Part shown: one piece after another, positions 6,616 through 41,100 of the stretch
Position numbering within the stretch: position 1 is the stretch's first letter
Layout: every line of letters starts with the position of its first letter
Source: a virus
Lineage: Duplodnaviria > Caudoviricetes
DNA length: 52,263 nucleotides
Strand: one strand, 5' to 3'
IMG/VR virus record: IMGVR_UViG_3300028025_001613
Coordinates: 1-52,263 of that record
The notes under the pieces: model-generated
Seen by the model: only the letters and a program-made list of their open reading frames with translations
Told to the model about the DNA's origin: nothing
Database searches by the model: none
Translations under genes and position numbers: made by a program

Positions 6616-7056
6616 ATGGCTATTCAGAAAGAAAACGTGTCAATTGATGTACAAGACATCATTGAATTATTACATAGTGGTTATACTTGGTATAAGAAAG
6701 ATGACTTAGGATATGGTTCCATCCAAGAGAAGTTTAACGCTCTAGATATTCATATCAAAACTATCCAAAAACATCCTGAATTAAAAGATGTGGATACAAT
6801 AGCTAAAGTATTTGTAATTACTAACAGAAACAAACAAACTAATGGAACAGGAACAACCACCAATACCGTTAATAACTCCACAGATGGAATCTCTATGGAA
6901 AGCTTACTTAAACCTGAGCAAAAATCTGATACTAGGATGCCAGGAGAGACAAGCTTACCTACAATCAGTAACAGAACTATTGATGAAAGAACAGACACTG
7001 TTCTTGCAGAAAACACAACAGTTACCTCTGATCTCTCAGCCTTTGCCAGCCTCTAA
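6616..7056 (+). CDS. Hypothetical protein with T/S-rich C-terminal half
   Basis: 146 aa ORF with A-rich leader; 3' 215 nt overlap the next ORF. Confidence 0.7.
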   Translation: MAIQKENVSIDVQDIIELLHSGYTWYKKDDLGYGSIQEKFNALDIHIKTIQKHPELKDVDTIAKVFVITNRNKQTNGTGTTTNTVNNSTDGISMESLLKPEQKSDTRMPGETSLPTISNRTIDERTDTVLAENTTVTSDLSAFASL

Positions 7057-8416
7057 TTTAAGACCAAGTCCTACTATGAGTGCAACACAGTTTCCTATAG
7101 GACGTCAACTAATAGGTAACGATGGTAATACATGGGAAGTAAAACCTACACATTCAGGCGTAAAACGTTGGGTTAGAGCTTATACTAGACCTACTCCATC
7201 AATAAATACTAGCATTATTAATACAAATGCTCAACAATCATTTAAATACAAACAAAATAACATGTCTAAAGTAAAATCTATTACAAAGAAAACTACTCAG
7301 GAAGTAAGAACAATTGACACTTCATTAATCAATAAGGAAGAAGTGTTTAAAATGCTAGCATTAGCAGAAGCTACAGGATTACCATGTCTTCTTGTAGGTC
7401 AACCGGGAGTAGCTAAAACCAAAACAATTATTGATTATGCTAAAGCATGGTTAAATAGAGATGGCAATATGTCTGCAGAAGACTTTGCTAACAAGATTTA
7501 TATCTTGGAGACAGATGAAGGCACTAAAGCTTCAGAAATTAAGGGTATGCCTGATTTAGGTAAGTTATTTACTAATAATGAATATGATCTTAATACACCA
7601 ATTGCTGATGCAGAGATCGTTATTATCAACGAGGTTGACAAAGCAAGCTCTGGTATCAGAAATGCAATGTTAGGTGTAATGAACGAGAAGTTCTTATTTA
7701 ACGGTAAGCACAAGATCCCATGTAAATGGAAATTATTTGTAGCTACTTGTAATGAAATCCCTAAAGATGAGATTGGATCTCCATTCTGGGACCGTTTCAT
7801 GTTAAAGATGACCGTTAACCGTGTATCTGCAGGTGAATTAGCTAAATATTTTAGCAAAGGAGCTCGTAATTATAAAGAGAAATTCTCTATTGGTGTACCT
7901 AATAAGCAAGAAATTGAAAACTTAGAAGTACCACCAAACAAGTTAGAGAAGTACTTAGAAGTGGGTTATCAACATAGCTCAGATCGTACATTAACATTTG
8001 TGCCTAGTTTAACTAAGGCTGTTAGTTACATCTGGGATATTAGTCTTGATAAAGCTCTTGTAAAGACAGCTCAGATTATGATTTCTCAAGCTGCAGGTTC
8101 AGAGTTACAGAATAAGTTGATGAGTCCAGAAATTAAAGCAGTTATGTCTAAGGTGGAGATGTTACATTCTCATAGCTCTAATGAGCAATTAGAACTAGCT
8201 ATTGCAGAGATTGAAGGATTGATTAACACTTATACTTCTCGTGGTATTATGGATGAAGGTCAAGTAGAAGAGATTGAATTATCAATGCAATATATTCTAG
8301 AGAATCATCCTGCTAGAGAAGTTAAAGTAACTGAAGATTTTGAAGCTATGATGTCTGAGGCAGAAGTAGTAAATGATACTATGTTACAAGCAAACACTAC
8401 TAGTAACCCTTTTTAG
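6842..8416 (+). CDS. MoxR/RavA-like AAA+ ATPase (core probably starts at ATG 7262)
   Basis: Walker A GQPGVAKT, Walker B-like IINEVDKA, ATCNE, DRF arginine finger; next to a vWA gene. Confidence 0.85.
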   Translation: MEQEQPPIPLITPQMESLWKAYLNLSKNLILGCQERQAYLQSVTELLMKEQTLFLQKTQQLPLISQPLPASNLRPSPTMSATQFPIGRQLIGNDGNTWEVKPTHSGVKRWVRAYTRPTPSINTSIINTNAQQSFKYKQNNMSKVKSITKKTTQEVRTIDTSLINKEEVFKMLALAEATGLPCLLVGQPGVAKTKTIIDYAKAWLNRDGNMSAEDFANKIYILETDEGTKASEIKGMPDLGKLFTNNEYDLNTPIADAEIVIINEVDKASSGIRNAMLGVMNEKFLFNGKHKIPCKWKLFVATCNEIPKDEIGSPFWDRFMLKMTVNRVSAGELAKYFSKGARNYKEKFSIGVPNKQEIENLEVPPNKLEKYLEVGYQHSSDRTLTFVPSLTKAVSYIWDISLDKALVKTAQIMISQAAGSELQNKLMSPEIKAVMSKVEMLHSHSSNEQLELAIAEIEGLINTYTSRGIMDEGQVEEIELSMQYILENHPAREVKVTEDFEAMMSEAEVVNDTMLQANTTSNPF

Positions 8417-8560: not shown

Positions 8561-10072
8561 ATGGCACTAAGAAGTCTCAGTACAGGAAAGCAGTATAAAA
8601 ATGTTTATACCATCCTAGAGAAAGTAAAAAAGGGAGAAATCCAATCTCATTATAAAGACAGTGAAGGTTTGTTTGGTAAACTAAACTTCTATAAAAAGAC
8701 TGATCTTATCAAGCCACACATGCATTATATAGATGAGAAAAGACTAAAAACAGTAGTTGACACTCATATAAATGATGCTAACAATACTAGTAAATACTAT
8801 CAAAGATTTCAAAAAAGTGTAGGATTTGGTAATCTACCAGACGATCAAAAGCCTGACTGGCAAGCATTCCAAAAAAAGATGACAGAAACTTATAAGAAGT
8901 TCCCAACTCATGTAAAGAATGACATCTTTAAAATGTTCTATCATAGAATGGATAAACTAGAATTTGAAGAGCGTACAGATAAAAACTATACACAATATAA
9001 GTTCTTAGAGCGTTCTAATAATCCTGTAGGTAAGATTATGACAGAAACAAGTAGTCTTAAATCAGCTATCTTCACTAGAAATCTAATGCATTATTATATT
9101 ATGCAGATGACTATGATGGAATATATAGATCCAAACGGTGCACAAGAATTAATGAACGGTCTTGGTGGTGATTCAGAATTTGGTAATCAGAATATTGATC
9201 AACTTATGGATAAGATGCTTGATAATAGATTATCTAAAAACATGATGGATGATGCTATACAAGATGCTCAAGATACATGTAAAGCAATGGATGAGTCTAT
9301 TCCACAAGATCTTCAAGATGAGATGTTTAATAACGTTAAAGAAGGTGGTGGTGCAGGTAAACTAAGTCCTGATTATATAAATCAAGTAGCTGCAGATATT
9401 AGAAGAATAAATATGTCCATGGGTTCTCTTAAAGACAAGATTAAGAAGTTAATGGATAAGTCCAAGAACTATTTCTCTGCTAAGAAAGAAACGATTCAAG
9501 AAGACTTATTTAACTCTGATAATATAGCAGGATTAGATGAGTTTGTATTCTTACATCCAAAGCTAAGAAAGTTCATGATTGAAGACATTATGATTAAAGA
9601 TACAAAGTCTATAGGTAAAATTAATATCTATATAGACGTATCTGGTTCAATGTCAGATAGTTGTGGCGTAGGAACTGTTGATGGTACAAGAATAGATAAA
9701 CTAGATTTCTGTAAAGCATTTGCTCTTAAAATGCAAGACTTAGGTATGCTAAATAAGATATATGTATTTAATAATGCTGTAAAAGAACTTAAGACAGATT
9801 TATTTTCAATAGCAAATCTAGGAACTAGTGGTGGAACATCAATTAATGTAGTAGTAGATCACATCAAGAGACATCCTGATAATGCATTAGTTATTACAGA
9901 TGCTGAAGATAGCTGTCATAGCTATTCAGAAAAAGCATTTTTCATAGGCGTTAAAGGAGCAAGATTTGATCACTTTAACAAAGAAACTATGAAAAAGTAT
10001 TCTGAAGCTGGTCAAGCAGTAGTATTTGATGGTGCAAGAATATTTAATGTAGATTCAAAAGGTAAATACTAA
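8561..10072 (+). CDS. vWA-domain protein (MoxR partner, ViaA-like)
   Basis: C-terminal MIDAS DVSGSMS...GGT...ITD. Confidence 0.88.
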   Translation: MALRSLSTGKQYKNVYTILEKVKKGEIQSHYKDSEGLFGKLNFYKKTDLIKPHMHYIDEKRLKTVVDTHINDANNTSKYYQRFQKSVGFGNLPDDQKPDWQAFQKKMTETYKKFPTHVKNDIFKMFYHRMDKLEFEERTDKNYTQYKFLERSNNPVGKIMTETSSLKSAIFTRNLMHYYIMQMTMMEYIDPNGAQELMNGLGGDSEFGNQNIDQLMDKMLDNRLSKNMMDDAIQDAQDTCKAMDESIPQDLQDEMFNNVKEGGGAGKLSPDYINQVAADIRRINMSMGSLKDKIKKLMDKSKNYFSAKKETIQEDLFNSDNIAGLDEFVFLHPKLRKFMIEDIMIKDTKSIGKINIYIDVSGSMSDSCGVGTVDGTRIDKLDFCKAFALKMQDLGMLNKIYVFNNAVKELKTDLFSIANLGTSGGTSINVVVDHIKRHPDNALVITDAEDSCHSYSEKAFFIGVKGARFDHFNKETMKKYSEAGQAVVFDGARIFNVDSKGKY

Positions 10073-11352
10073 AGATTGATTTTAGAACCTACTACCATAA
10101 ATAATAGCATAGGAACTTGGGGATTAGTTGAAAGACTAGTCCTCAATCCTATGTTTAATTTAAAACGTTTAGTAAAAGAATAATCACCGGAAACTCCAGT
10201 GATAAAACCCATATCCTCGGATATAACAAAGTCCTTAGTATCAAACATATACATTACAGGACTCCCTGATACATAAAGTTCAGGAGATAGATTTAGCCTT
10301 CTATTAACAGGAATAGGCTTAGTATAAAATAAAAGAAGATTGTGCATTAGATTGTCTTTACTAAAAGACAAAGTGTAGTTAGCCCCCGTAACACCCCATT
10401 TACCCATAGGGTAGATATAAGCATATGTCAAGAAACTAGATAAGTTTCCAAACATATAAGCTGTAGTAAAACCATAGTTAGATATAGACTCTAACTTCCC
10501 TCCATTGAAATTCATTTTAGTATATCTAGAAGACAGTACAAACTGTTTTAGATTACTCCATACCATAGCACTTACGCCCCAAGAAGAAGCTCCAGTCATA
10601 GAAGACTGAGATATTCCCCCGCTAAGTACCAACGCTATACTAGCGTCAACATTTTGACCTGCAGTGAGATCAGAATTAAATAAAATAGGATTCATCCTAG
10701 CCTGAGTCTTGTTAGAGGATTTAGAATCCTTTTTACTATCAGACTTTTTTTCCTCAGATTTCTTTTCAGATTTAGACTCTGATTTAGATTCTGACTTAGA
10801 CTCAGACTTAGATTCTGAGCTACTAGATGATTCAGAACTTGAAGAACTTTCACCACTAGAGCTGCTACTACTAGATTCTGAGCTTGATCCTTGAGAATTG
10901 CTTGAACTACTAGTAGAGCTACTAGAAGGTGGAGCAGCAGTAGGAGGAGGTGCAGCCGCTGAAGAAGCAGCAGCAGAAGCCGCAGCTGATGCAGCACTAG
11001 AAGCTGCAGATGAAGTAGCTGAACTTACAGCAGCACTTACTGCAGCAGAAACAGCATTGGCTGTAACTTGAGTGCTAGTTTGTGCAGTTTGAGCCACAGA
11101 ACAGGGAGATAATCTACGATAATCTTCATATACTTGATTAATCCAAGTCTGAAATGCACCAGAAGATATATCAGCGGCAGTAAAAGTCCTAGACTTATTA
11201 TAGAACACAATAACAGTGCTGCCAGTAATAGGAATGCTAAACGTACTGACAACTTTAGTACAAGGGTCAGTAAACGTCTGTATAAGAGTTTGACTATACG
11301 CATAACATGGTAGTAATACTACTAAAATTAGTGCAAATATAAACTTTTTCAA
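10069..11352 (-). CDS. Exported protein: signal peptide, Ser/Ala-rich linker, C-terminal outer-membrane beta-barrel-like domain
   Basis: TTG start, MKKFIFALIL...AYS/Q; alternating hydrophobic strands in the last ~200 aa. Confidence 0.75.
   Translation of the reverse strand: MKKFIFALILVVLLPCYAYSQTLIQTFTDPCTKVVSTFSIPITGSTVIVFYNKSRTFTAADISSGAFQTWINQVYEDYRRLSPCSVAQTAQTSTQVTANAVSAAVSAAVSSATSSAASSAASAAASAAASSAAAPPPTAAPPSSSSTSSSSNSQGSSSESSSSSSSGESSSSSESSSSSESKSESKSESKSESKSEKKSEEKKSDSKKDSKSSNKTQARMNPILFNSDLTAGQNVDASIALVLSGGISQSSMTGASSWGVSAMVWSNLKQFVLSSRYTKMNFNGGKLESISNYGFTTAYMFGNLSSFLTYAYIYPMGKWGVTGANYTLSFSKDNLMHNLLLFYTKPIPVNRRLNLSPELYVSGSPVMYMFDTKDFVISEDMGFITGVSGDYSFTKRFKLNIGLRTSLSTNPQVPMLLFMVVGSKINL
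10735..11065 (-). repeat. Low-complexity coding repeats (SESK x4 12-mer, poly-Ser, poly-Ala)
   Basis: Degenerate TTAGA(C/T)TC(T/A)GA 12-nt tandem units and GCA/ACT triplet runs. Confidence 0.85.
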
Positions 11353-11460
11353 TCACTTTAACTTATTTAAGATGAGTAGATTAGATTTAATTAAAGCTGA
11401 AGTTTTAACTCCAGATTTAACAGATCTCATAGCTCTCTTCTTTTTCTTAGCGTTTGCCAT
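11353..11460 (-). CDS. Small basic peptide (35 aa, not in ORF track)
   Basis: MANAKKKKRAMRSVKSGVK...LNKLK* fills the gap between neighbouring genes. Confidence 0.6.
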   Translation of the reverse strand: MANAKKKKRAMRSVKSGVKTSALIKSNLLILNKLK

Positions 11461-11465
11461 AACAA

Positions 11466-12179
11466 TTATTTAGTAAATATACCTTTCTTAATCATACGAT
11501 CTAGGATACGAGCACAAGCTATATCTAATGCTTTCTTAGTAGAAATACTAATAGTAGATTGATTAAATTTAACAGGATCTAAAGCCGCATCAGATAAACC
11601 TGAAGTCTCTTTAGTAGTCTTTGCTTCTCCAAGTCCAGAACCACTAAAAACCACACCAGTTTCAGCATCAGTGAATCTAACTTGTAAACCAATCCTCGTA
11701 ACCATAAGTTGTTTTGTACCATCTTTAAGGCTAACACTTTCATCTTCTGATATACTATAATCATAACATTCAATAGTTACAAAGTATTTAGCAAGATTAA
11801 TCTTACCACGTCCATCTAACTTATTCTCAGAGATACCTGCTTGGGAAGCTTGAAACTGCTTCACCATACGATTTTTAATCTCTGTTTTATCCTCTGTAAA
11901 TTTGAATCTATTAAGATTCTCTAAATATTCCATAGAAATGTTAGCAACTCCTAATCCTACACGCTTTTCTTTAAGCTCCGGATACATTTCATACATTTCA
12001 TCCGATATACCACATTTAAGGATCTGTATAGGTATTTGTGGACCTTCATAGTCTAAAAATTGAGATATGTCAATAGCTTTTTCAAAGCTAGCTTTATAAT
12101 TTTCTGTCTGAGTCTTAGCTATTTGAGCTTTAGTATTTATAGTAAATAGTAAACAAGCTAATATTATAAAATATTTCAT
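11466..12179 (-). CDS. CsgG/HfaB-like exported protein
   Basis: Signal peptide; GLGVANI...LENLNRFKFTE and LQVRFTDAETGVVFSGSGLG fit the CsgG/TolB-N fold pattern. Confidence 0.65.
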   Translation of the reverse strand: MKYFIILACLLFTINTKAQIAKTQTENYKASFEKAIDISQFLDYEGPQIPIQILKCGISDEMYEMYPELKEKRVGLGVANISMEYLENLNRFKFTEDKTEIKNRMVKQFQASQAGISENKLDGRGKINLAKYFVTIECYDYSISEDESVSLKDGTKQLMVTRIGLQVRFTDAETGVVFSGSGLGEAKTTKETSGLSDAALDPVKFNQSTISISTKKALDIACARILDRMIKKGIFTK

Positions 12180-12394
12180 GATTTAGTTTTTAAAGATTTG
12201 GACAGCAAGAAGTATGACAGCCAAAATACTCCTGACAGACAATAGAATATAATATCTGTAGCCCAAAAGCTCCCAGTGTAATCTAAGAGCGTCTTGAACA
12301 GCAGATCGTATCCCAGTGGGAGAAAGAACATTGCTGCCATTAAGCTGACATCCCGTGAGGAACGAAGTATTTTTATTCTCTGTCTTTTGGTCAT
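12176..12394 (-). CDS. Small two-TM membrane protein
   Basis: 72 aa, hydrophobic segments, PLGYD motif; ATGA coupling to the CsgG-like gene. Confidence 0.7.
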   Translation of the reverse strand: MTKRQRIKILRSSRDVSLMAAMFFLPLGYDLLFKTLLDYTGSFWATDIIFYCLSGVFWLSYFLLSKSLKTKS

Positions 12395-12404
12395 CAGAAT
12401 CCAT
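12183..12404 (-). CDS. Overlapping alternative-frame membrane protein (candidate)
   Basis: 73 aa, A-rich leader, C-terminal hydrophobic helix; overlaps 12176..12394 almost entirely. Confidence 0.4.
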   Translation of the reverse strand: MDSDDQKTENKNTSFLTGCQLNGSNVLSPTGIRSAVQDALRLHWELLGYRYYILLSVRSILAVILLAVQIFKN

Positions 12405-12418
12405 AGTGTTTAGTTAAG

Positions 12419-13027
12419 TTAACAATGTTCATCCTTGATTCTACCGCAATGGATACACTCTAAGTCTCCATCACCGTCAGTATCACCCCACTCATGTACA
12501 CACTGTTTATGCTCATGATGCAGGAATTCTAACTTTTCCATCTCTTGTTTATGCTCTTGTTGATCAGCTTCTAAAACCTGACGATGTTCTTGCTCATCTT
12601 TAGAAAGCTCAAACTTTTGTTTGTTCTCAGTAACAGCTAAATCAGAAGCACGCTCTGCAGCTTTAACAAATGCATCAGGAATAGTTGGAGCATATGGTTT
12701 ATTAGACTCTTTCATATCATTAGTATGAGAAAGAGTAGTACCATCTTCTTCATCCATTTTTTGTACAAGCATCTTGTCTTTATCTGTATCAGAGAACCAG
12801 TAATCAATAATCTTACCGTAAGAGCCAATAAAGGCACCTAACAATAACATTAATAACTCTTTCCATTCTCCAGCCATAGTGGCGTTATTAGATACAGCTA
12901 TAAAAATAGCTACAATGATCATCATAAATGATCCTAATACTAACGCTGTAATAAACCAGCGTCTTCTCATCATTGAGCCTAAGAGTTCTTTAAACCCTCC
13001 AGCTTCTGGTTGTTTTTTATCTTCCAT
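12419..13027 (-). CDS. Two-TM membrane protein with coiled coil and C-terminal Zn-ribbon
   Basis: Two TM helices, IIDYWFS motif, CxHxW-DxDxDG-CxxC terminus. Confidence 0.8.
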   Translation of the reverse strand: MEDKKQPEAGGFKELLGSMMRRRWFITALVLGSFMMIIVAIFIAVSNNATMAGEWKELLMLLLGAFIGSYGKIIDYWFSDTDKDKMLVQKMDEEDGTTLSHTNDMKESNKPYAPTIPDAFVKAAERASDLAVTENKQKFELSKDEQEHRQVLEADQQEHKQEMEKLEFLHHEHKQCVHEWGDTDGDGDLECIHCGRIKDEHC

Positions 13028-13054
13028 AAAAGTTTTTTAGTTCTTAATAATACA

Positions 13055-13360
13055 TTACCATTTAGGAGCTTCTTCTTTAAACTCGTCTCCTTCTTTCTTT
13101 TTAACAGGAGCAGCAGGTTTAGCTGCAGCTTCTTTCTCTTTAATGATAACTGTTTTACCACCACTAGCAGCTGCTTGCTGATTAGAATTAGTGATATTAA
13201 TAACAGGAGCTGCTGCAGCAGGAGTTTCTTTTTCATCTCCACCACCTGTTAATTTATTAGTAACAAATCCGCCTACACCTAGTGTAACCGTACTTACTAA
13301 AGTGATAAGAATCCCTTTAAAGGATTTACCAGTTGATTCTTGTTCTACTTCTTCTGACAT
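13055..13360 (-). CDS. Single-TM protein with low-complexity tail
   Basis: 101 aa, TM at about residues 17-33, A/P/K-rich tail. Confidence 0.75.
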   Translation of the reverse strand: MSEEVEQESTGKSFKGILITLVSTVTLGVGGFVTNKLTGGGDEKETPAAAAPVINITNSNQQAAASGGKTVIIKEKEAAAKPAAPVKKKEGDEFKEEAPKW

Positions 13361-13378
13361 AATGTATGTTTTTATAGT

Positions 13379-13750
13379 TTATTTAATTAATATAGGAAAC
13401 TTTACTTCTTTACCGCTAATATCTATGAATATAAAATCATAGTGTTTTTTAGGTAAATCAACTAAGCTATAAGATTTAACAGTTAAACTATCTTTAGCTG
13501 TAAACCCCTCTTTCTTAGCAGGCTCTTCTGAACCAAATGGGATTATCTGTACAGAATACTTAGCTCCTGGAGTTGTTGCAAACTCTGCAGTGACTGTAGT
13601 ACCATTTTGTACAATAGATTTAATACTTGTAGATGTAGATTGTTTACCTAAATCAATTGTTTGAAAAGGTACAGGCTCTACTTTTCTACAACTTGCAACT
13701 ACAATAGTTAGCAAAAATCCTAAGTTCAATAATTTTTCTAATTTATTCAT
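13379..13750 (-). CDS. Lipoprotein with Ig-like domain
   Basis: LTIVVASC lipobox; beta-rich C-terminus reminiscent of T9SS sorting domains. Confidence 0.7.
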   Translation of the reverse strand: MNKLEKLLNLGFLLTIVVASCRKVEPVPFQTIDLGKQSTSTSIKSIVQNGTTVTAEFATTPGAKYSVQIIPFGSEEPAKKEGFTAKDSLTVKSYSLVDLPKKHYDFIFIDISGKEVKFPILIK

Positions 13751-13751
13751 T

Positions 13752-15857
13752 CTAAAAGTTGTTATAACCAGTTAATTTAATTTGTGTAGAATTTAGATTA
13801 ATACCTAATTGATTACCTTTAGCATCACTAGCATCCATAAGAGTTGATACTTTTACAGATGTAATAATATTTACACCTTCACCAATTGTGCTAAACTTAA
13901 GTTTGAATGGTGTACTTACACCAGATAAAGCAACTGATTTATTTTGATCTAATGCTCCAAATTTAACTCTGCCATTATTATCATTTGCAAAAATGTACCA
14001 AGTAGCAGGAATTGTAGGTATAAGCTCTTCAAACTTAATCTTTTTAGGATCGTATGTAAACTCAAACTGTAAACCAGATACATTTAAACCTTTAGTGTCT
14101 AAACCTACAGGTATTTCTATAGTGTTACTTGTAACAGTTAAGTTAGTTAAGTTTACATCTACAGAACTTACATCATATGGAGTGTTGATAAATCCTCCTG
14201 TAGAGAATGTAGACATGTTTCTAAATGCAGTGTTAGTTTGTAAACTATTAACGGCATTAGTTTGTACAGTAGAAGATCCTCCAGAAACAGTTACGACCTG
14301 AGAAGAGTGAGATCTGTTTACATCACCCCATAAAAGATATTTAAGATCTAAAACAGCATTTGTACCAAGAGCCCCTGTAGTTAAATAAGTTCTAGGATAT
14401 GTTATATTTTTCCAGTTAGTAGTATTTATAGCTCCCCATGAACTGTTCACAGAAGTATTAAAACTAGGTTCAGCTTGGAACATATAATCATTATTATTCT
14501 TTCTTATATATACAGAGTATAATGAACTACCATCTACAGCTTTTGGTATAGTAGTAGGAATTTTATACTGAGCCCAAGCAGCATCTTCTGTTATATATTC
14601 TATAGGTCCTGTGTATACATCAAATAATTGTATACTTTTTAAAGTACTAGCTACAGTTCCACTAGGAAACTTTCTCATATCAACATACAAAGTACTATTT
14701 GATGTTCCAACATTAACATATACCCATTCAACTTGACCAGCAAGTGTACGTATTTCAGCTGCATTCCAAGTAGGAATACTCATATATCCCGCACTACCTG
14801 CAACATAAGTACTTGGAAGTTTTGTTAGTGTGTCTATATTAGCTACTTGACCTAGTAATCTAGGTAAGTCACCTCCATCTATCTTTTGGTTTCTGTTAAT
14901 ATCAGCAGCATATAAAGATTGTCCGGTCTTTAAGTTTTGACCGTTAGATCCATCTAATCCCATTGAAGTAAATTCATTCTGAGCTGTAGTAAAATCTGAT
15001 ATAGTAATTGCATTACCATAGATATCATATAATTTATCCATGTCATGCATTAAACTAACTTCATAAACTTTATTAGCAGCTAACTGAGATTGATTTACAT
15101 CTACATCTCCTGTAGAAGTTACAGGAAACATCACTCCAGTATTTGTAACAGTATCTCTAAAAGATACTTTGAGATTAGAAAGATTAAATAAGTTAGAATT
15201 TAAATCCACCTTAGCTGTTACATATTTACCAAAGTTTTGGTTCATAGCTACAGCTGTAGTTAACGGAGCTTCCATTACTGTAGCATCATAAGCACCAGCA
15301 GCAGTCCAACCAGCTACAAAGTTTAGTTTAATAGGATTAAAAGTATATGCTGTAGAAGCAGCTTTAAGTCTAAACTTAATTTTTATAAAGTCACTATAGC
15401 CACTATAAGGCATAGATGAATTAGTAGACCAAGTAAGAGTAACTCTTAATATAGCATAAGGATTAGTATTACTATAGTTGTACTGTGCATATTGATAGTT
15501 AGTAGTACCATTAGTTGTATTATTAGCACTAGATCCTGAGCTCACTGTAAGAAAGTTATATCCAGGATAATCATAATAAGAAAGATTAATAGTAGAACCT
15601 TGAGGAAGAATGCCACCATTACCACCTGTACCAGTATGATTTACAGATACAATCTCAAAATTGTTTCTATCATATTGTAAATCAAATAGTAACTGACGAG
15701 TAGTAGCATTATTCATACCATTACCATAAATTACATAGTCAAACTCACCACCTCTATTAAGAGATGGACCACCTACTGATGCAGCAGCTTTAAACTTCTG
15801 TTGAGCAGATGCTTGAATAACAAATAAAAGAGTAAGAAAAAATAACAGTTTCTTCAT
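13752..15857 (-). CDS. Exported cohesin/dockerin-like domain protein
   Basis: Signal peptide; two cohesin-like segments (LFDLQYD; SGLQFEFTYDP); dockerin-like loops ADINRNQKIDGGD and GDVNRS. Confidence 0.7.
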   Translation of the reverse strand: MKKLLFFLTLLFVIQASAQQKFKAAASVGGPSLNRGGEFDYVIYGNGMNNATTRQLLFDLQYDRNNFEIVSVNHTGTGGNGGILPQGSTINLSYYDYPGYNFLTVSSGSSANNTTNGTTNYQYAQYNYSNTNPYAILRVTLTWSTNSSMPYSGYSDFIKIKFRLKAASTAYTFNPIKLNFVAGWTAAGAYDATVMEAPLTTAVAMNQNFGKYVTAKVDLNSNLFNLSNLKVSFRDTVTNTGVMFPVTSTGDVDVNQSQLAANKVYEVSLMHDMDKLYDIYGNAITISDFTTAQNEFTSMGLDGSNGQNLKTGQSLYAADINRNQKIDGGDLPRLLGQVANIDTLTKLPSTYVAGSAGYMSIPTWNAAEIRTLAGQVEWVYVNVGTSNSTLYVDMRKFPSGTVASTLKSIQLFDVYTGPIEYITEDAAWAQYKIPTTIPKAVDGSSLYSVYIRKNNNDYMFQAEPSFNTSVNSSWGAINTTNWKNITYPRTYLTTGALGTNAVLDLKYLLWGDVNRSHSSQVVTVSGGSSTVQTNAVNSLQTNTAFRNMSTFSTGGFINTPYDVSSVDVNLTNLTVTSNTIEIPVGLDTKGLNVSGLQFEFTYDPKKIKFEELIPTIPATWYIFANDNNGRVKFGALDQNKSVALSGVSTPFKLKFSTIGEGVNIITSVKVSTLMDASDAKGNQLGINLNSTQIKLTGYNNF

Positions 15858-16489
15858 TAATTAAGTTTCTTTACAAGTGAACTACATGCTTTTTTAATAG
15901 CAGTAGATAAATTTTGATTGTTAAATTTACCTCCCTCATCTATAAGAAGAGTAGACATTGATATCTCATCTGCAGATTCTTCTACAAGAATCTTTTTAAC
16001 GAGCTTATCACCTTTATATAAGAATCCTTGTAGTCTGATAACTACAGATTCCTTGTTATTATGTATTATAGAAAAGCTAGATTGTGTTTTTAATACATCT
16101 AGATATACTATATCAACCTTTAAAACATTGTCAGAAGCGTGATCTAAATCATAGCCCTCAGCTTGATACACTTCTTCTAAGACATTCTTTATACCAAACT
16201 CTAGTTTTCTATTACCAGCTAAGTTTCCAATCTGGATCTTGTTAGTAATCATTCCTATAGCAATTGTCTTAGGTTCTTCATACCAAATGTTTCCTGGAGA
16301 GTTTTTAAAAGTTCCATCAAACTTCCATGAAAATTCATTAGACATTTGTTGAAGCTTTTCTTGATTACCAGAAAATTCTAGATATAAAGCATAAGACATT
16401 AAGGATAAGGCAAATACTAACCATAATCCAAATAATGTTAAAAAGCTATATACTAAATATAACTTAGCTTTATCAATAATTGCTACCAT
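15857..16489 (-). CDS. Membrane-anchored protein with CsgG/TolB-N-like alpha/beta domain (putative)
   Basis: N-terminal TM; FGIKNVLEE helix and terminal STAIKKAC parallel the 11466..12179 product. Confidence 0.6.
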   Translation of the reverse strand: MVAIIDKAKLYLVYSFLTLFGLWLVFALSLMSYALYLEFSGNQEKLQQMSNEFSWKFDGTFKNSPGNIWYEEPKTIAIGMITNKIQIGNLAGNRKLEFGIKNVLEEVYQAEGYDLDHASDNVLKVDIVYLDVLKTQSSFSIIHNNKESVVIRLQGFLYKGDKLVKKILVEESADEISMSTLLIDEGGKFNNQNLSTAIKKACSSLVKKLN

Positions 16490-16502: not shown

Positions 16503-16534
16503 AAAAAGAAAAAAGGGTAGAAATTATCTACCCT
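16503..16534 (-). terminator. Rho-independent terminator (minus strand)
   Basis: AGGGTAGA/TCTACCCT stem with an A tract on its left. Confidence 0.7.
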
Positions 16535-16663: not shown

Positions 16664-17281
16664 TTATACAAGTAGGGTGTGAAACTCTTTAAAATGCTTG
16701 ATACGATCAGCAAGACCAATAGTACCACCATTAACTCTTTTAGTGATCTTAGTAACTACTTCATCAGAAGCTCCTGTATCAGCAATTTCATTAAGCTTGT
16801 TCTTAGACCAGAACCAAGCAGCTGAAGATAGAGCATGTGTTGAAGCTACTGAATCAGGATTAACTGACATATCTACACCAATTGATTTACCAAATGCTGT
16901 ATAGTTATCTTTACCAGTTAACTGGATATATCCACGACCTCTAAATTTATAACCATCACCTGATGCTTCAGGACCGTTACCCATACGTCCACCATATACA
17001 AGATTAGCAATCTTCTCAGGCTTCTTAGCATACGCTGCAGCCTTAGGTTCATCAACTGTACCATCAGGACGCTTAAAATATTTCTTAAATATTCCTGTTA
17101 ATCCTTTAGCAGAGTAATTAAGGTTTTCTTGTGTAACTCTAAAGCCACCAGATTCATGACCAGCTTGAGCTAAAAAATGTGCTAGACGCAATGGAGTTTT
17201 AATACCAAACTTTTCTTGTATAGAAGGAATCTGAGCAATAACTGTGTCAGGAACATGTCCTTTTAAACGAGATAAGTCCAT
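16664..17281 (-). CDS. Endolysin, glycoside hydrolase family 19
   Basis: AHFLAQAGHES, ENLNYS, FRGRGYIQLTG, SAAWFW, VNGGTIGL. Confidence 0.93.
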   Translation of the reverse strand: MDLSRLKGHVPDTVIAQIPSIQEKFGIKTPLRLAHFLAQAGHESGGFRVTQENLNYSAKGLTGIFKKYFKRPDGTVDEPKAAAYAKKPEKIANLVYGGRMGNGPEASGDGYKFRGRGYIQLTGKDNYTAFGKSIGVDMSVNPDSVASTHALSSAAWFWSKNKLNEIADTGASDEVVTKITKRVNGGTIGLADRIKHFKEFHTLLV

Positions 17282-17283
17282 GA

Positions 17284-17457
17284 TTAAGCCTTATTTTTAG
17301 GTTTGTAATATCTTTTCTTCTTTTTAGGAGCTGCTTCTTCAGCAACAACTACTTCTTTTTTAGCTTTAGGAGCTTCTTCTACTACTGGAGCAGGAGCCAC
17401 AACTGGTTCTACAGGTGCAGCAAATAAGCTCTTAAAAAATGCAATTACTTTTTTCAT
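17284..17457 (-). CDS. Small Ala/Pro/Lys-rich protein (57 aa, not in ORF track)
   Basis: MKKVIAFFKSLFAAPVEP...KKKKRYYKPKNKA* fills the gap. Confidence 0.7.
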   Translation of the reverse strand: MKKVIAFFKSLFAAPVEPVVAPAPVVEEAPKAKKEVVVAEEAAPKKKKRYYKPKNKA

Positions 17458-17458
17458 A

Positions 17459-18079
17459 CTATTTTTTTAGTTTTATCTTCCAATAAGATTGAATACCATA
17501 AGTAATAGGACCATTAATTTCAGTACCTATATTCAATCCATATATATGATCTTTTTTATTCTTTAATAATACTCCGGCACTTGCTCCTGTAATTCCAAGA
17601 GTTTGATTACCGTTTATACCACCACCAAAAAACATTTGAGTTTTAGGCTTTTCATAATGCTGTATAGTAACAGTATTAGTTATTGTAGGAATCTTATAAT
17701 TAGATCTGACCGATCTTCCTCTAAGACTATTTTGATTAACTGTATCTATAATAGAAACATAACCAAGAGTATCAAGTCTGATAGTATCTTTAAACTCTAC
17801 AAGAGCCATATACTTACTTAACAAATCATTATATTGAGCTAAAAGCTTAGGGTAATTTGTATCAGCAATATATTCTGGAGGAGTAGCAATTGTATCATGT
17901 AATACTTTACCTTTTAAAGTTAGTGTTTTATAGATGGTAGTATCATGTACAGACCATGTAGTATCATGGACAACTGTAGTATCTGATTTCTTACCTTCAA
18001 AATTAACATAACCGCATCCTCCTTGTTGGAAGAATACCACTACAATTAATATTAAGATAATTATACTAAGATATTTCAT
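17459..18079 (-). CDS. Putative spanin-like lysis accessory protein
   Basis: N-terminal TM/lipobox-like GGC, HDT repeats, C-terminal amphipathic beta strands; beside the endolysin. Confidence 0.55.
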   Translation of the reverse strand: MKYLSIIILILIVVVFFQQGGCGYVNFEGKKSDTTVVHDTTWSVHDTTIYKTLTLKGKVLHDTIATPPEYIADTNYPKLLAQYNDLLSKYMALVEFKDTIRLDTLGYVSIIDTVNQNSLRGRSVRSNYKIPTITNTVTIQHYEKPKTQMFFGGGINGNQTLGITGASAGVLLKNKKDHIYGLNIGTEINGPITYGIQSYWKIKLKK

Positions 18080-18314
18080 CTGACTTCTTTTTTAATGAAA
18101 ACTTATCACCGGTATCACCAAGTAAAGCTGCTATACAGATATACATTACAGACTCTACCAAAGCATCTGAAGGTTTAATATCTCCATGACTAAAACTGTT
18201 AGCAGTTAATGTTACACATAAGAATAATGCACACATAAAACCTACTACAGGTTTGATTGATGTAGAACCACGCTCATCTTTAAAAAGATCTAAAACCCAG
18301 TCTTTAAAATTCAT
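18066..18314 (-). CDS. Putative holin
   Basis: 82 aa, two TM segments, charged ends, in the lysis cassette. Confidence 0.55.
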   Translation of the reverse strand: MNFKDWVLDLFKDERGSTSIKPVVGFMCALFLCVTLTANSFSHGDIKPSDALVESVMYICIAALLGDTGDKFSLKKKSDEIS

Positions 18315-18589
18315 CTTGTGTATTTTATCTTGTTATCAGGTAAAACAGCATATACTATTTCACGTTCCTTTTCAGGTATAGCCGGAATAGAAGCTGACGG
18401 AGCAGCTTTATAAAACTGTCTTTCTATATTATCAATCCTTGTTTTGTCTATATTAGACTGAGCCATAAGAAGCTTAACATCAGCTTTTATCTCATTGACA
18501 TCATTCCATATCAAAAGACTAACAAGTGATACTAAAGATGGGAATATCCACACCTTAAAAGCAGCTATAGAAGGATTCTCTTTAGTCAT
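18311..18589 (-). CDS. Single-TM coiled-coil protein (holin/antiholin candidate)
   Basis: One TM followed by heptad region. Confidence 0.55.
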   Translation of the reverse strand: MTKENPSIAAFKVWIFPSLVSLVSLLIWNDVNEIKADVKLLMAQSNIDKTRIDNIERQFYKAAPSASIPAIPEKEREIVYAVLPDNKIKYTR

Positions 18590-38105: not shown

Positions 38106-41100
38106 TTACTTTCTTCTTTGGAACTCTTGACCTTTAAGAGCTTTTACCGGGTCTATTTGAGATCCGGTAATACCAAAGATCTTAGCTGCATCATTAATAA
38201 ATTTAGGACTATCTTGTTTTTGGAAGCTATAAGGACCTGCATCTTTTTTATAGAATGCTCCTTTATCATCAGTCATATATCCTACAAGATGGTCTAAGAA
38301 ATCCATAGGTTGTTTTAATGTAACACCGTATATAGCATCAGGCATAATAATATTTCTACCTGTAGCTTTTACTTGAGACCATGAAGAAAACTGTTGAGTC
38401 TCGTTAAGTGTACCTAACATAACCACAATACCGTGGTTAAATAACCAACCGCTCAAGTTAAAGTCTTTTTCATTAAGAGCTCCACTACGCTTTCTCATCT
38501 TTTCAAAACGGTCTTCATCATCACCATCATATCCAAATACTAAACCTAGCATTGAGAATAATACTACTTGATGGGCAATGTCTGCAACAAACTTAAGGAA
38601 GTTTTTCTTCTCTTCTAGACTCATCATGTTATAGTTACCTACACCATATTTAAAGAAGTCTCTAGCAGTTTGTAATACAGAAGTATAATATCCTGTAGTA
38701 ACTGTTCCTAAAGCTGCACTAGGTCTTGTAGCACCCACTCTATTCATAAGCATAGAGGTAAAGAATTTCTTTAAGAATGCTACTAGTCTAAAGGCAGCAT
38801 AACGCTGAGCTTCAGGCTGATCCATTCTAGAATAAGTACCTTGCAATCTGTTAGATACTTCATGCATAGTGTTCTTAATTCTATTAAACTCTTCTCCTCC
38901 AAGATCGTATTTCTTATCTATACCTTCTTTTAACGTGATCTGACCATTAACTACTTCCCAAGCATCAATGTATCTAATATTCTTAGTTTGACCATTTAAA
39001 GTTTGTTCTACCTTAATATGATGCATCATTCCAGAAAACATTTCCATAGTAGCTTCTACCTCTAAGAACTTACGTGGAGACATGAAAAAGCTTAAGCTAG
39101 CAGTATCAGATGCAAAAGATCTACCAAACTGCTCACCTAAAGTTTTATCAAACATACCCTGTCCTGGATCAAATACTTGTATAAGCTGAGCATCTAATGA
39201 TCTATTACCAGTCTTGTATAATTGAGCACTATGTGCTAATATCATCTTAACAGCTCTAGGTTTTCCTAGTAAGTAACTTTGATAGTTTATATACTTAGAT
39301 CCGGCTGCTTCAATACTTAATTGAACAACTGCTCCCATTCTGTTTTTTAATGCAGATGGTAATACATTAAATGAGAAGAAACCAAAGCTAGCTAAACTCA
39401 TCACTTGACTTTGGAACTTAAGTAGTGCAGGACTGTTAGCAAACCAACCGGCTTGGTTAACACCTTCAAACTCACGCTCATATAATCTCTGTATAGCACT
39501 TGCTCTTACAGACTCACCTTTCTTAGTTAAATAAGATACACGTCCAGTCTTCTGGAACATCCACTTATTAATCTTACTCATGTCTTTTACAGCATTGTCA
39601 GGATCAGCTATAGAAGTTTTAAGTGCTTGAGCAAATGGATTAAGCTCAACCAGCTTCTTCTGTCTTAAACCTGAGTGCATATACTTAAGCATAGAGTCAC
39701 CAATATTCATACTAACTTGATCCAACTCTAGATTGTAAAGACCTGTAATAGGTACTTTCTTAATCTCTTCATCAAACATATTAGTATAAACCAACTGCTC
39801 AGGATTAAAGTTTAAACCATCTTCATAGTCATCATTAGCTTTAAAGAACATTTGTTTAACACCTCTCATCCACTCTTTAGCTTTACTAGCTTCTTTATCT
39901 GTACTAGTTCCTTGCAAGTATTCTAGTCTAGGTTTACGGTATCTAGGAATCTGTAGATATAATCTACTCTCTCTAGGTAAACCTTCTTGGAACTTAAGAT
40001 GGAACTGTTTCATTTTTTCTAGTACAGCAAAAGCAGCAGGTCTTTCCCTTCTTAATTTCTCATAAGCAGGATTGATATATTTATCATCAACCGCTCCTTC
40101 TGCTACAGTTTTAGGTAACCAGTTACCTTTATTGTCTACAGTTACACCCACTTCTTTTTGAGTTCTATAATCTTTCTTAACTGATCTATAGAAGTAAGAT
40201 AGGTTAGGCTTACCTAATATCTTTTCTCCATCAGCTAATGTAATAGTCTCAAATGAATCAGGGTCATTAGGACGAGTTCTATTCCATATAAATATACGCT
40301 CATATACTGTCTTAGTAGTTCCTAACTCAGCATCAAATACTTCCTTAGATACGTGGTTAGCTTTAAACCAAGCTTCATATTCAGCACTCTCATTAAATAA
40401 TGTAACATAAGAGTTAGGTTGTAAAAGACCTTGAACAGTTTCATTATCTAGCAAAGGAAGATCTAACTTTTCCATCCAGTTATTAGCTATATCTACATAA
40501 TAATCAGTAGCTTCTTTAGATTGTAGTTCACCAAGCTTTTGGTAAATACGGTTTAACTCAGCTTTCTGCATTAAGTTTAACTTAATCGTAATACCTTTAT
40601 TTACTAGCTCGTTCATCCTAGCAGAATCCTCAGGAGATAATCTAGTGTTTATACTTTGATCTTTTTTGTTAAACAAATCTGATAACTCTTCAGTTTCAGC
40701 TTTACTTAAACCACTATATAACGATTTCTTTTTCTCATTAATCTTTTCCTGTAAAGTCTTAGCTTTATCTTTACTCTTCTGAGTAATATCTGTTCCAATG
40801 ATCTGACCATCTTGATCTCTGAATCCAGTAGCCATATCTAGCATCTCCTCCATTTCTGTAGAAGAGTCAATCATGTCTCTAGTCTGTTGAGGAAGAGATT
40901 CCATAAATGCTCTAAGTTGATTTAACACTTTGTTTCTCTCATCAAAGAACTGTTGAGTGTAAGCTACAACTGTATTATTCTTAATCCATTTATCACGTGC
41001 CTCTATAAATTCAGGAGATCCTGCAGCAATACCATCATCTACAAGAGTTTGTTCCATTCTTCTTAAGCTAGACTCAAACAATCCTGGAGTAGGAACCCAT

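Follow-up and report, generated by a model that had tools for sequence, protein, structure and literature searches.

Introduction

Tailed phages that carry envelope proteins of the CsgG fold have been described before. Pelagimyophages of the HTVC008M type and the methylophage Melnitz encode CsgG and CsgF without genes for the curli fibre, and the roles proposed for phage CsgGF in the consulted part of that report are lysis timing, uptake and the capture of neighbouring (sibling) cells (PMC9004378). Among Bacteroidota phages, the consulted part of a second report describes 'Cryophage', with highly variable secreted proteins that bear type A sorting domains for a type IX secretion system (T9SS) and that differ between phage variants; roles in competition or superinfection were suggested (PMC7468147). 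In this study we analysed the IMG/VR virus record IMGVR_UViG_3300028025_001613, a linear record of 52,263 bases with an estimated completeness of about 40%, the whole of which is referred to as the window. We describe a block of eight genes at 10069-16489, here called the module, that encodes among others a CsgG-fold protein, an outer-membrane beta-barrel and an adhesin-like secreted protein. Its products may form a complex centred on the outer membrane that remodels the surface of the infected cell.

Like phage CsgG, the CsgG-fold protein of the module (w237; open reading frames, ORFs, are named w plus their length in amino acids, aa) is a predicted tailed-phage envelope protein found without recognised fibre genes. 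The published proteins model as true CsgG with a beta-barrel and pair with CsgF, as given in the consulted part of the report (PMC9004378); their hosts are SAR11 or OM43. In w237 there is no lipobox and no membrane-like hairpin; it is instead paired with a separate 12-stranded barrel (w427), a probable second CsgG-like protein (w210), predicted inner-membrane proteins and adhesin-like cargo, and the hosts are Bacteroidota. The cargo of 'Cryophage' consists, in the part consulted, of single enzymes or a PA14 protein in variable islands and carries T9SS domains (PMC7468147), whereas the module embeds a cargo slot in a conserved multi-gene block and the slot protein of the window (w701) has no detectable T9SS domain. 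New with respect to the published cases are thus the CsgG-like protein without pore features, the dedicated 12-stranded barrel partner, and the inner-membrane proteins together with the swappable adhesin slot.

An earlier note, made from the letters of the window, had proposed an undescribed phage secretion or surface-remodelling system at this place. No description of the module or of the bacterial cassette related to it was found in a literature search that did not extend to supplementary files. Phage CsgG/CsgF (PMC9004378) and phage T9SS cargo (PMC7468147) are already in print, to go by the consulted parts, which calls for some moderation of the word undescribed.

Results and discussion

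Gene content and export signals of the module

The interval 10069-16489 was filled by eight contiguous ORFs on the minus strand, in transcription order w210, w701, w123, w101, w202, w72, w237 and w427. About nine contiguous co-oriented genes following a lysis cassette had been reported in the earlier note; contiguity, common orientation and the position after an endolysin of the glycoside hydrolase family 19 (GH19) type held, and the ORF listing gave eight genes. Export signals were sought with a simple hydropathy script, the calls of which are heuristic. Signal-peptide-like N-termini were found in w427, w237 and w701, a lipobox (VASC, Cys21) in w123, and transmembrane (TM) segments in w210 (residues 12-30), w202 (residues 25-43) and w101 (residues 16-34); the hydrophobic stretches of w72 were recognised by eye only. 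Of the eight ORFs in the module, seven lay above the threshold for N-terminal hydrophobicity, compared with 7 of the 59 in the remainder of the window (Fisher one-sided p = 2.8e-5); three of these seven outside ORFs were upstream genes of the same strand block. The sole miss in the module was an alternative-frame ORF (12183-12404) that the greedy ORF picker had taken in place of w72. The statement that nearly all of the genes carry a signal peptide, lipobox or TM helix was thereby borne out, and so was the presence of a lipoprotein.

The proteins could alternatively be structural or decoration components of the virion. Lectin, cohesin and immunoglobulin (Ig)-like domains are common on phage tails and capsids, and the window, a record about 40% complete, is without identifiable structural genes for comparison. 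We nevertheless consider this explanation very improbable. Signal peptides, the lipobox, TM anchors, an outer-membrane barrel and the T9SS sorting domains found in other loci point to export to the host envelope, and no PHROG structural family was matched by the module proteins. The signal peptides argue against ordinary virion components, as the earlier note had held.

Conservation of the module across phages

A scan of IMG/VR with w237 returned 514 viral stretches that encode a relative. The best 80 loci by w237 similarity, some of them truncated by contig ends, were then compared by tblastn with the proteins of the window. Next to w237 (80 of 80), w427 was detected in 79 loci, w101 in 77, w210 in 72, w701 in 69 and w202 in 68, followed by w123 in 52 and w72 in 36; the plus-strand genes that flank the module in the window were present in 21-29. 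The module genes kept their order and strand. When only loci with full flanks were counted (at least 9 kb upstream and at least 3.5 kb downstream), the five core genes w210, w101, w202, w237 and w427 were all present in 40 of 46, and the full core was retained in 23 of the 28 fully flanked loci without the flanking genes of the window.

The same arrangement was found in a cultured and unrelated phage, the 160-kb Flavobacterium myovirus vB_FspM_immuto. Among deposited phages it was the only one with similar DNA, in a single 297-base stretch, 67% identical, that falls within w237. Immuto carries the run im14-im15-im16-im17-im18-im19, in which im17 is 53% identical to w237, im18 31% identical to the N-terminus of w427, the cohesin of im15 35% identical to that of w701, and im19 27% identical to w210; im16 stands at the position of w101 and was judged a homologue by eye, BLASTP giving no match. 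The synteny asked of other genomes by the earlier note was therefore found both in the viral loci and in immuto. That note had named three outcomes that would speak against its proposal, namely absence of co-conservation, other folds and unprocessed virion components, and none of them was encountered.

Median identity was 38.5% for w427 and 85.1% for w237, the latter figure being inflated by the choice of loci; the cargo and barrel genes were the most divergent of the module. Within loci, the conservation of w237 exceeded that of the DnaB-like helicase in 25 of 29 cases and that of the endolysin in 47 of 50, a comparison likewise biased by the w237-based choice of loci.

An alternative view of these genes is that of a loose island of independent exported morons, clustered through shared regulation and not forming one complex. 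Their content does vary: w123 and w72 occur in 52 and 36 of the 80 loci, the cargo differs, extra barrels and lipoproteins appear, and w210 occurs both fused and split. Set against this, five genes hold order and strand across backbones (the 40 of 46 loci) and in immuto, the CsgG-like and barrel genes are neighbours in bacteria as well, and w101, with an invariant peptide at its C-terminus, would seem to have a fixed partner to bind. We therefore judged an island of independent genes to be unlikely.

Near-identical DNA was found in lake-water and subsurface metagenomes of several studies, and the module is widespread among freshwater phages of Flavobacterium-like bacteria. To our knowledge, the T9SS is restricted to Bacteroidota and relatives. 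The T9SS domains of some loci, the labels of metagenome-assembled genomes (MAGs) and phage immuto together point to Flavobacterium-like hosts.

w237 has a CsgG fold without pore features

w237 (11466-12179) is a predicted secreted protein and the most conserved gene product of the module. By itself it matched no Pfam family at E <= 0.1. When 1.84 billion cluster representatives were searched in full with HMMER, 205 relatives were obtained at E <= 0.001. In an alignment of 36 full-length family members, 18 matched Pfam CsgG (PF03783, best E 1.9e-17) and eight matched LpoB, and the family profile retrieved CsgG from the PDB at E 6.5e-4. The AlphaFold2 model calculated from the family alignment had a predicted local distance difference test (pLDDT) value of 85.8. 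With this model Foldseek placed CsgG (4uv2) on top, with E 2.3e-7 and TM 0.56, followed by PelC, HP0492, FlgT, GNA1162 and LptE. VIA-align gave CsgG a Z of 13.2 (root-mean-square deviation, rmsd, 3.2 A; 183 residues aligned), three Z units ahead of Cj1090c (9.9), PelC (9.8 and 8.7) and LptE (about 8). Among viral models the best match was a phage protein named CsgG (E 2.7e-7).

No lipobox was recognised in w237, the single N-terminal Cys being residue 9, inside the hydrophobic core; in the alignment most of the distant relatives do carry a Cys at the end of the signal peptide. The model contains one long hairpin, formed by strands 132-150 and 154-171, the outer half of which is charged (E145, D146, E147, K152, D153, K156). 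The profile alignment between w237 and CsgG stops ahead of the second membrane hairpin of CsgG, w237 being the shorter protein. Judged from the sequence and a monomer model, neither of the two amphipathic transmembrane beta-hairpins of CsgG is recognisable in w237. Because the lipid anchor and membrane-like hairpins are missing, w237 is in our reading probably a scaffold of the CsgG fold rather than a channel. The analogy to the outer-membrane ring of CsgG, drawn in the earlier note, accordingly extended to the fold and not to the pore. No curli family of Pfam was matched at E <= 0.1 by the module neighbours of w237, a search that short CsgF-like proteins could escape.

A small protein of CsgG-like fold encoded together with a distinct barrel is also known from Pel polysaccharide export, in which the lipoprotein PelC makes a ring below the PelB barrel. 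PelC stood, however, three Z units below CsgG for w237, and the module is without polysaccharide synthesis genes. PelB is a larger barrel with a tetratricopeptide repeat (TPR) domain, whereas w427 has 12 strands and a small N-domain. A ring of w237, and its contact with the barrel, would be predictions by analogy to Pel.

w427 is a 12-stranded barrel with a tethered N-domain

Structures were predicted for w237 and w427. In the AlphaFold2 model of w427 (10069-11352), the signal peptide is followed by a small N-domain (residues 20-85), in which C31 and C84 were invariant in 73 sequences. Residues 85-225, with pLDDT below 50, comprise an Ala/Ser helix and a disordered linker rich in Ser, Glu and Lys, and residues 226-427 form an all-beta C-terminal barrel (pLDDT about 72-89). 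The predicted beta-barrel protein of the module was thus confirmed by model, Foldseek and VIA-align as a 12-stranded barrel of the outer-membrane type. With VIA-align the barrel matched KdgM (Z 19.5, rmsd 1.9 A, 166 residues aligned), NalP (19.4), a COG4313 channel (18.7), FapF (18.4), AIDA-I (18.2), BrkA (18.1), NanC (17.6), VhGalP (16.9) and the PelB barrel (10.7). With Foldseek, PcoB, NanC and FapF were found at E of about 1e-5 (range about 1e-5 to 1e-4). All of the 807 homologues of w427 were unnamed. The PHROG search gave a weak match to phrog_2853, of unknown function, and one homologue carries the precomputed Pfam accession PF27936, which a local Pfam run did not reproduce.

Since the Z values are tied, the fold of w427 cannot tell a porin from a polypeptide exporter. 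The order of domain, linker and barrel in the model is that of autotransporters (NalP, AIDA-I, BrkA) and of FapF from the Pseudomonas amyloid system, in which, as in w427, a linker joins the N-terminal part to a barrel of 12 strands at the C-terminus. It differs from them in that its N-domain has only about 65 residues, that no Pfam autotransporter family was matched at E <= 0.1, and that the porin KdgM scores equally well. Helix 97-132 aligns to the pore helices of the translocators, but it lies within the stretch of pLDDT below 50.

The barrel could also be a phage-supplied outer-membrane channel for the uptake or release of solutes or oligosaccharides, feeding the infected cell, with w237 as periplasmic adaptor. 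The oligosaccharide porins KdgM, NanC and VhGalP and the copper channel PcoB are among its best matches, and macromolecule uptake is one of the ideas put forward for phage CsgG pores in the consulted part of that report (PMC9004378). Their Z values are nevertheless tied with those of the autotransporter and FapF barrels, and a porin would need neither an N-domain on a linker of about 130 residues nor inner-membrane partners nor adhesin cargo. A feeding channel appeared to us quite improbable. A complex prediction of mature w427 with mature w237 scored 0.00 against a mark of 0.32, a result that speaks neither for nor against binding.

Some versions of the module encode extra proteins of 270-300 aa (L045, 5842-6735; L028, 905-1798; L086, 11513-12334). 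These have a signal peptide, and their C-terminus, with F as the last residue, resembles that of outer-membrane proteins; in one case the end of the w427 barrel is matched at 28% identity.

The pair of CsgG-like and barrel genes occurs in bacteria

One genome for each of 185,579 prokaryote species was scanned with a narrower alignment of the w237 family, which gave 11 loci. Five were phage-like contigs binned into MAGs of Bacteroidota or others, and these carried further module genes. The remaining six were bacterial, from Ignavibacteriales, KSB1, Rhodothermales, Bacteroidota, Chitinivibrionales and Cloacimonadota. Three of these loci (KSB1, Rhodothermales, Cloacimonadota) had, directly after the gene for the CsgG-like lipoprotein, one for a protein of about 410 aa that shares the architecture of w427: a signal peptide, an N-domain containing two cysteines, a linker of acidic character and a barrel with RF as its last residues. 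In hhalign, the w427 family aligned to the family of these bacterial neighbours (eight sequences) at 95.5% with E 1.6e-8 over 153 barrel columns; the match was weak (19.8%) with the three neighbours only and reached 95.5% after five more relatives had been added. Three of the six bacterial loci also contained a CsgG-like paralogue, no more than a few kb away.

As the pair of CsgG-like and barrel genes is adjacent in bacteria of the Fibrobacteres-Chlorobi-Bacteroidetes (FCB) group, we concluded from sequence and gene order that the core of the phage module is a cassette captured from this group.

The bacterial CsgG-like domain also occurred in fusions, with caspase-like domains in P0221, P0225 and P0229 and with a Ser/Thr kinase in P0260, and therefore behaves as a general periplasmic module. 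In these loci and in two others (L088, 9385-11862; L091, 8821-10893) it stands beside, or is fused with, Peptidase_C14 caspase-like peptidases or a Ser/Thr kinase, and the same context includes a protein with sub-threshold transglutaminase-like Pfam matches. Such neighbours and fusions suggest a wider context of periplasmic signalling or proteolysis for the CsgG-like family.

w210 and the small membrane proteins

w210 (15857-16489) combines an N-terminal TM segment with a C-terminal domain of the Lipoprotein_16/YajG type. The match to Pfam Lipoprotein_16 (PF03923, YajG) had E 5.8e-4 and 20.1 bits, below the cut-off of 25 bits; among 25 relatives of w210, 12 matched Lipoprotein_16 at E <= 0.01 (best 1.7e-6) and two matched TraT. 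The 2596 homologues of w210 were all unnamed, and in its Atlas clusters, which are unnamed and virus-derived, Lipoprotein_16 was found in 14-30% of the members. A profile search of the PDB gave nothing meaningful for w210, the best match (E 0.069) being an unrelated eukaryotic protein. Compared with hhalign, the w210 family gave 8% directly against the whole w237 family, 57% against the bacterial CsgG-like paralogue, and 81% (E 1.2e-5, 115 columns) against a subset of the CsgG-like family; the paralogue itself is a firm member of the w237 family (99.1%). We concluded that w210 is probably a divergent second CsgG-like protein. The claim of two CsgG-like proteins in the module thus held for the fold of w237, in Foldseek, VIA-align and family profile alike, and probably, through the intermediate, for w210.

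In other backbones, among them L026, L029, L045, L048 and L057, w210 is split into two genes. Just upstream of w237 lies one of them, for a TM protein of 68-82 aa; the other heads the module and encodes the domain in a protein of 161-187 aa that has a signal peptide.

w101 (13055-13360) is a predicted single-pass membrane protein with a tail rich in Ala, Pro and Lys. Its C-terminal 12-mer, EGDEFKEEAPKW, was nearly unchanged across divergent loci in which the rest of the protein is 43-60% identical, and looks like a docking motif. The small predicted lipoprotein w123 (13379-13750) matched no family in Pfam, PHROGs or NCBIfam, and no significant match in these three collections was found for w101, w202 or w72 either. 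w202 (12419-13027) has one strong and one weaker TM segment, and its C-terminal domain is acidic and closes with a motif of four Cys; its match to phrog_9990, of unknown function, was weak (E 0.0048), and its Atlas matches were to unnamed virus-derived clusters only. w72 (12176-12394), also small, has basic ends and two weaker stretches of hydrophobic character, and is holin-like in form only. The Pfam matches of w202 and w72 were below threshold (E about 0.01 to 0.06), and a scan of all eight module proteins against NCBIfam returned low-complexity noise only.

The w72 gene was relocated downstream of w427 in three loci (L046, L073, L076). At 12176-12404 of the window, two minus-strand ORFs overlap in different frames, w72 and a 73-aa ORF (12183-12404), and both are open in close relatives; conservation at the protein level was found only in the w72 frame.

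w701 occupies a variable cargo slot

w701 (13752-15857) is a predicted secreted multidomain protein. Its C-terminal cohesin domain, foreseen by the earlier note, was recognised by Pfam (Cohesin, PF00963, residues 578-661, E 2.6e-5) at 24.9 bits, just above the cut-off of 24.1 bits; stronger scores were obtained for relatives (5.9e-9 for im15 and 5.3e-9 for L086). The accompanying dockerin was not recovered. No match to Pfam Dockerin (PF00404) was found at E <= 0.1, and w701 shows a single conserved motif resembling a dockerin Ca-loop, an EF-hand-like loop at residues 319-330 that, with the following helix, is conserved at 90% or more in 29 relatives. A degenerate first dockerin repeat was seen by eye only.

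In other loci the slot is occupied differently. Cohesin together with the T9SS sorting domain Por_Secre_tail (PF18962) was found in im15 (Por_Secre_tail 2.4e-8) and in L086 (1.9e-11), and both also in the slot protein of L068, where Por_Secre_tail reached 25.5 bits, below its cut-off of 27 bits. The slot protein of L063 contains a C-type lectin domain (Lectin_C), and that of L079 a C-type lectin and an LCCL domain. Further small barrels and lipoproteins were present in some loci. In the window itself, Por_Secre_tail was absent from all eight module proteins in both Pfam and NCBIfam.

A possible complex at the outer membrane

From these observations we infer the location of each part, the contacts between parts and the biological role as follows. 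The module would be a mobile, phage-borne envelope module whose core consists of w237 as a periplasmic CsgG-fold protein, the w427 barrel with its tethered N-domain, and w210. To this core phages would have added the putative inner-membrane proteins w101, w202 and w72, the lipoprotein w123 and a slot in which the secreted, adhesin-like cargo varies. In an infected Bacteroidota cell, Sec would export the proteins, and the w427 barrel would insert into the outer membrane. The CsgG-like proteins could form a scaffold beneath the barrel, as the ring-forming relatives CsgG and PelC do, and w101 might span from the inner membrane to this scaffold through its conserved C-terminal peptide. Such a complex would anchor or export variable binding proteins and so alter what the surface of the infected cell binds. 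The altered surface could exclude other phages, mask receptors, or attach the cell to particles or neighbouring cells. A complex centred on the outer membrane that remodels the infected-cell surface is the explanation we tentatively favour, with a likelihood somewhat short of even.

Several points weigh against it. No computed interface connects the parts of the module, and the single trans-envelope secretion machine implied by the parts list of the earlier note did not find support. The topology calls come from the simple hydropathy script. The absence of lipobox and membrane-like hairpins in w237 means that a CsgG-like pore cannot be assumed, and the link of w210 to CsgG varies with the alignment used. 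w701 has no T9SS sorting domain in Pfam or NCBIfam, which leaves its route across the outer membrane unexplained. The place of the module beside an endolysin in 50 of 80 loci, with small TM proteins of holin-like form nearby, fits lysis equally well, and a terminator-like hairpin parts the module from the endolysin, so that the two may not be transcribed jointly.

A more ambitious version would see here an undescribed outer-membrane machine of the FCB group, built of a pore-less CsgG-fold scaffold, a 12-stranded barrel to which a disulfide-bonded N-domain is tethered, and a further CsgG-like subunit, a machine that phages captured and wired to the inner membrane through w101, w202 and w210. 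It might serve as a trans-envelope device that exports or anchors swappable adhesins, or as the spanin-equivalent of Bacteroidota phages. We regard this version as doubtful.

Flavobacterium-like Bacteroidota are major polymer degraders in fresh water. If the module re-dresses the surface of infected cells, effects on phage competition, particle attachment and carbon flow would be expected; should it be a lysis device instead, the lack of known spanins in Bacteroidota would be made good. Cultured immuto and its host Flavobacterium sp. LMO8 offer a direct experimental handle.

Neighbourhood of the endolysin

Directly upstream of the module is a gene for a GH19-type endolysin (16664-17281, minus strand; Pfam Glyco_hydro_19 E 3.4e-11; phrog_181 endolysin E 5.6e-72), the last of six upstream genes on the same strand (w91, w92, w82, w206, w57 and the endolysin). 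w82 and w92 (18066-18589, minus strand) are small TM proteins and candidate holin-type genes; w82 matched no NCBIfam family and w92 no Pfam family. w206 (17459-18079, minus strand) has a strongly hydrophobic N-terminus (TM or signal segment at residues 4-22) and a beta-rich C-terminus. Within the fetched flanks the endolysin was detected in 50 of the 80 loci, w206 in 50, w82 in 39 and w92 in 34. The endolysin gene lies on the opposite strand in one backbone class, and in one backbone class w206, which travels with the module, is found downstream of w427 instead of upstream.

These neighbours bring in the main rival to surface remodelling, a lysis or egress apparatus, in which the module, as an arm of the lysis cassette of Bacteroidota phages, would disrupt the outer membrane. 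The inner-membrane proteins w101, w202, w72 and w210, tied to w123, w237 and w427, would breach or fuse the envelope once the endolysin has acted, or would time lysis. Besides the endolysin and the small TM proteins upstream on the same strand, and the fact that w206, w82 and w92 travel with the module, the topology of w101 (TM anchor and periplasmic tail) beside the lipoprotein w123 resembles that of an i-spanin and an o-spanin, and w72 and w202 have a holin-like topology of two segments. A role in lysis timing has been proposed for phage CsgGF, according to the consulted part of the report (PMC9004378).

The likeness to two-component spanins is limited to an inner-membrane protein and a lipoprotein encoded side by side near an endolysin. 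In the module the lipoprotein comes first, opposite to the typical order of spanin genes. The periplasmic part of w101, judged from its sequence, appears to be a low-complexity tail rich in Ala, Pro and Lys and not a coiled coil, and w123 is a lipoprotein of about 100 residues, beta-rich by composition, with no family match. We know of no recognised spanins in Bacteroidota phages. In immuto the module lies about 8 kb from the only lysin annotated in the stretch examined, amid tRNA, nucleotide-metabolism and hypothetical genes, and the opposite strand of the endolysin in one backbone class also speaks against a common cassette. It is hard to see what variable cohesin, lectin and LCCL cargo with T9SS tags would do in lysis, the core pair is present in bacteria without phage lysis genes, and eight genes with about 2070 codons are large for the task. 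Taken together, we considered a lysis apparatus rather unlikely.

The gap of 174 bases between the endolysin and w210 contains a terminator-like hairpin on the minus strand (16514-16534) with 8 pairs, 4 of them G-C, followed by a T-run. It was found in a consensus scan that gave 8 terminator-like sites in the scanned region against 3.5 +/- 1.9 in shuffles. Given this hairpin ahead of w210, the module may form a separate transcription unit. In the promoter scan, sigma-70-like sites were rarer than in shuffles (34 vs 41), and the Bacteroidota -7 motif occurred at chance level (72 vs 72.9). Between w206 and the endolysin lies w57 (17284-17457, minus strand), an Ala/Pro/Lys-rich ORF of 57 aa that tblastn detected in 3 of the 80 loci; it may be fast-evolving or not a gene. 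RNA libraries with matching contigs, which may contain DNA, comprised two poly-A libraries of one study with one contig each over 16907-17654, and one marine library with many pieces, mostly 90-95% alike.

Other features of the window

GC content across the window was 29-35%, and the plus-strand blocks encode replication functions (helicases, primase, DNA polymerase, exonuclease and an ATPase). A plus-strand pair converges on the module, an ORF at 6842-8416 that matches PHROG ATPase families and one at 8561-10072 that encodes 503 aa; by eye the latter has a DxSxS-type motif and possibly a von Willebrand A domain. The pair is confined to backbones like that of the window (21 and 26 of the 80 loci, respectively). 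The right end of the window is occupied by two giant minus-strand ORFs, one at 38106-43454 (1782 aa), for which no PHROG match was found, and one at 43458-52232 of at least 2924 aa, which runs past the end of the window. The sole Pfam match of the two was DUF7831, at residues 2764-2874 of the second.

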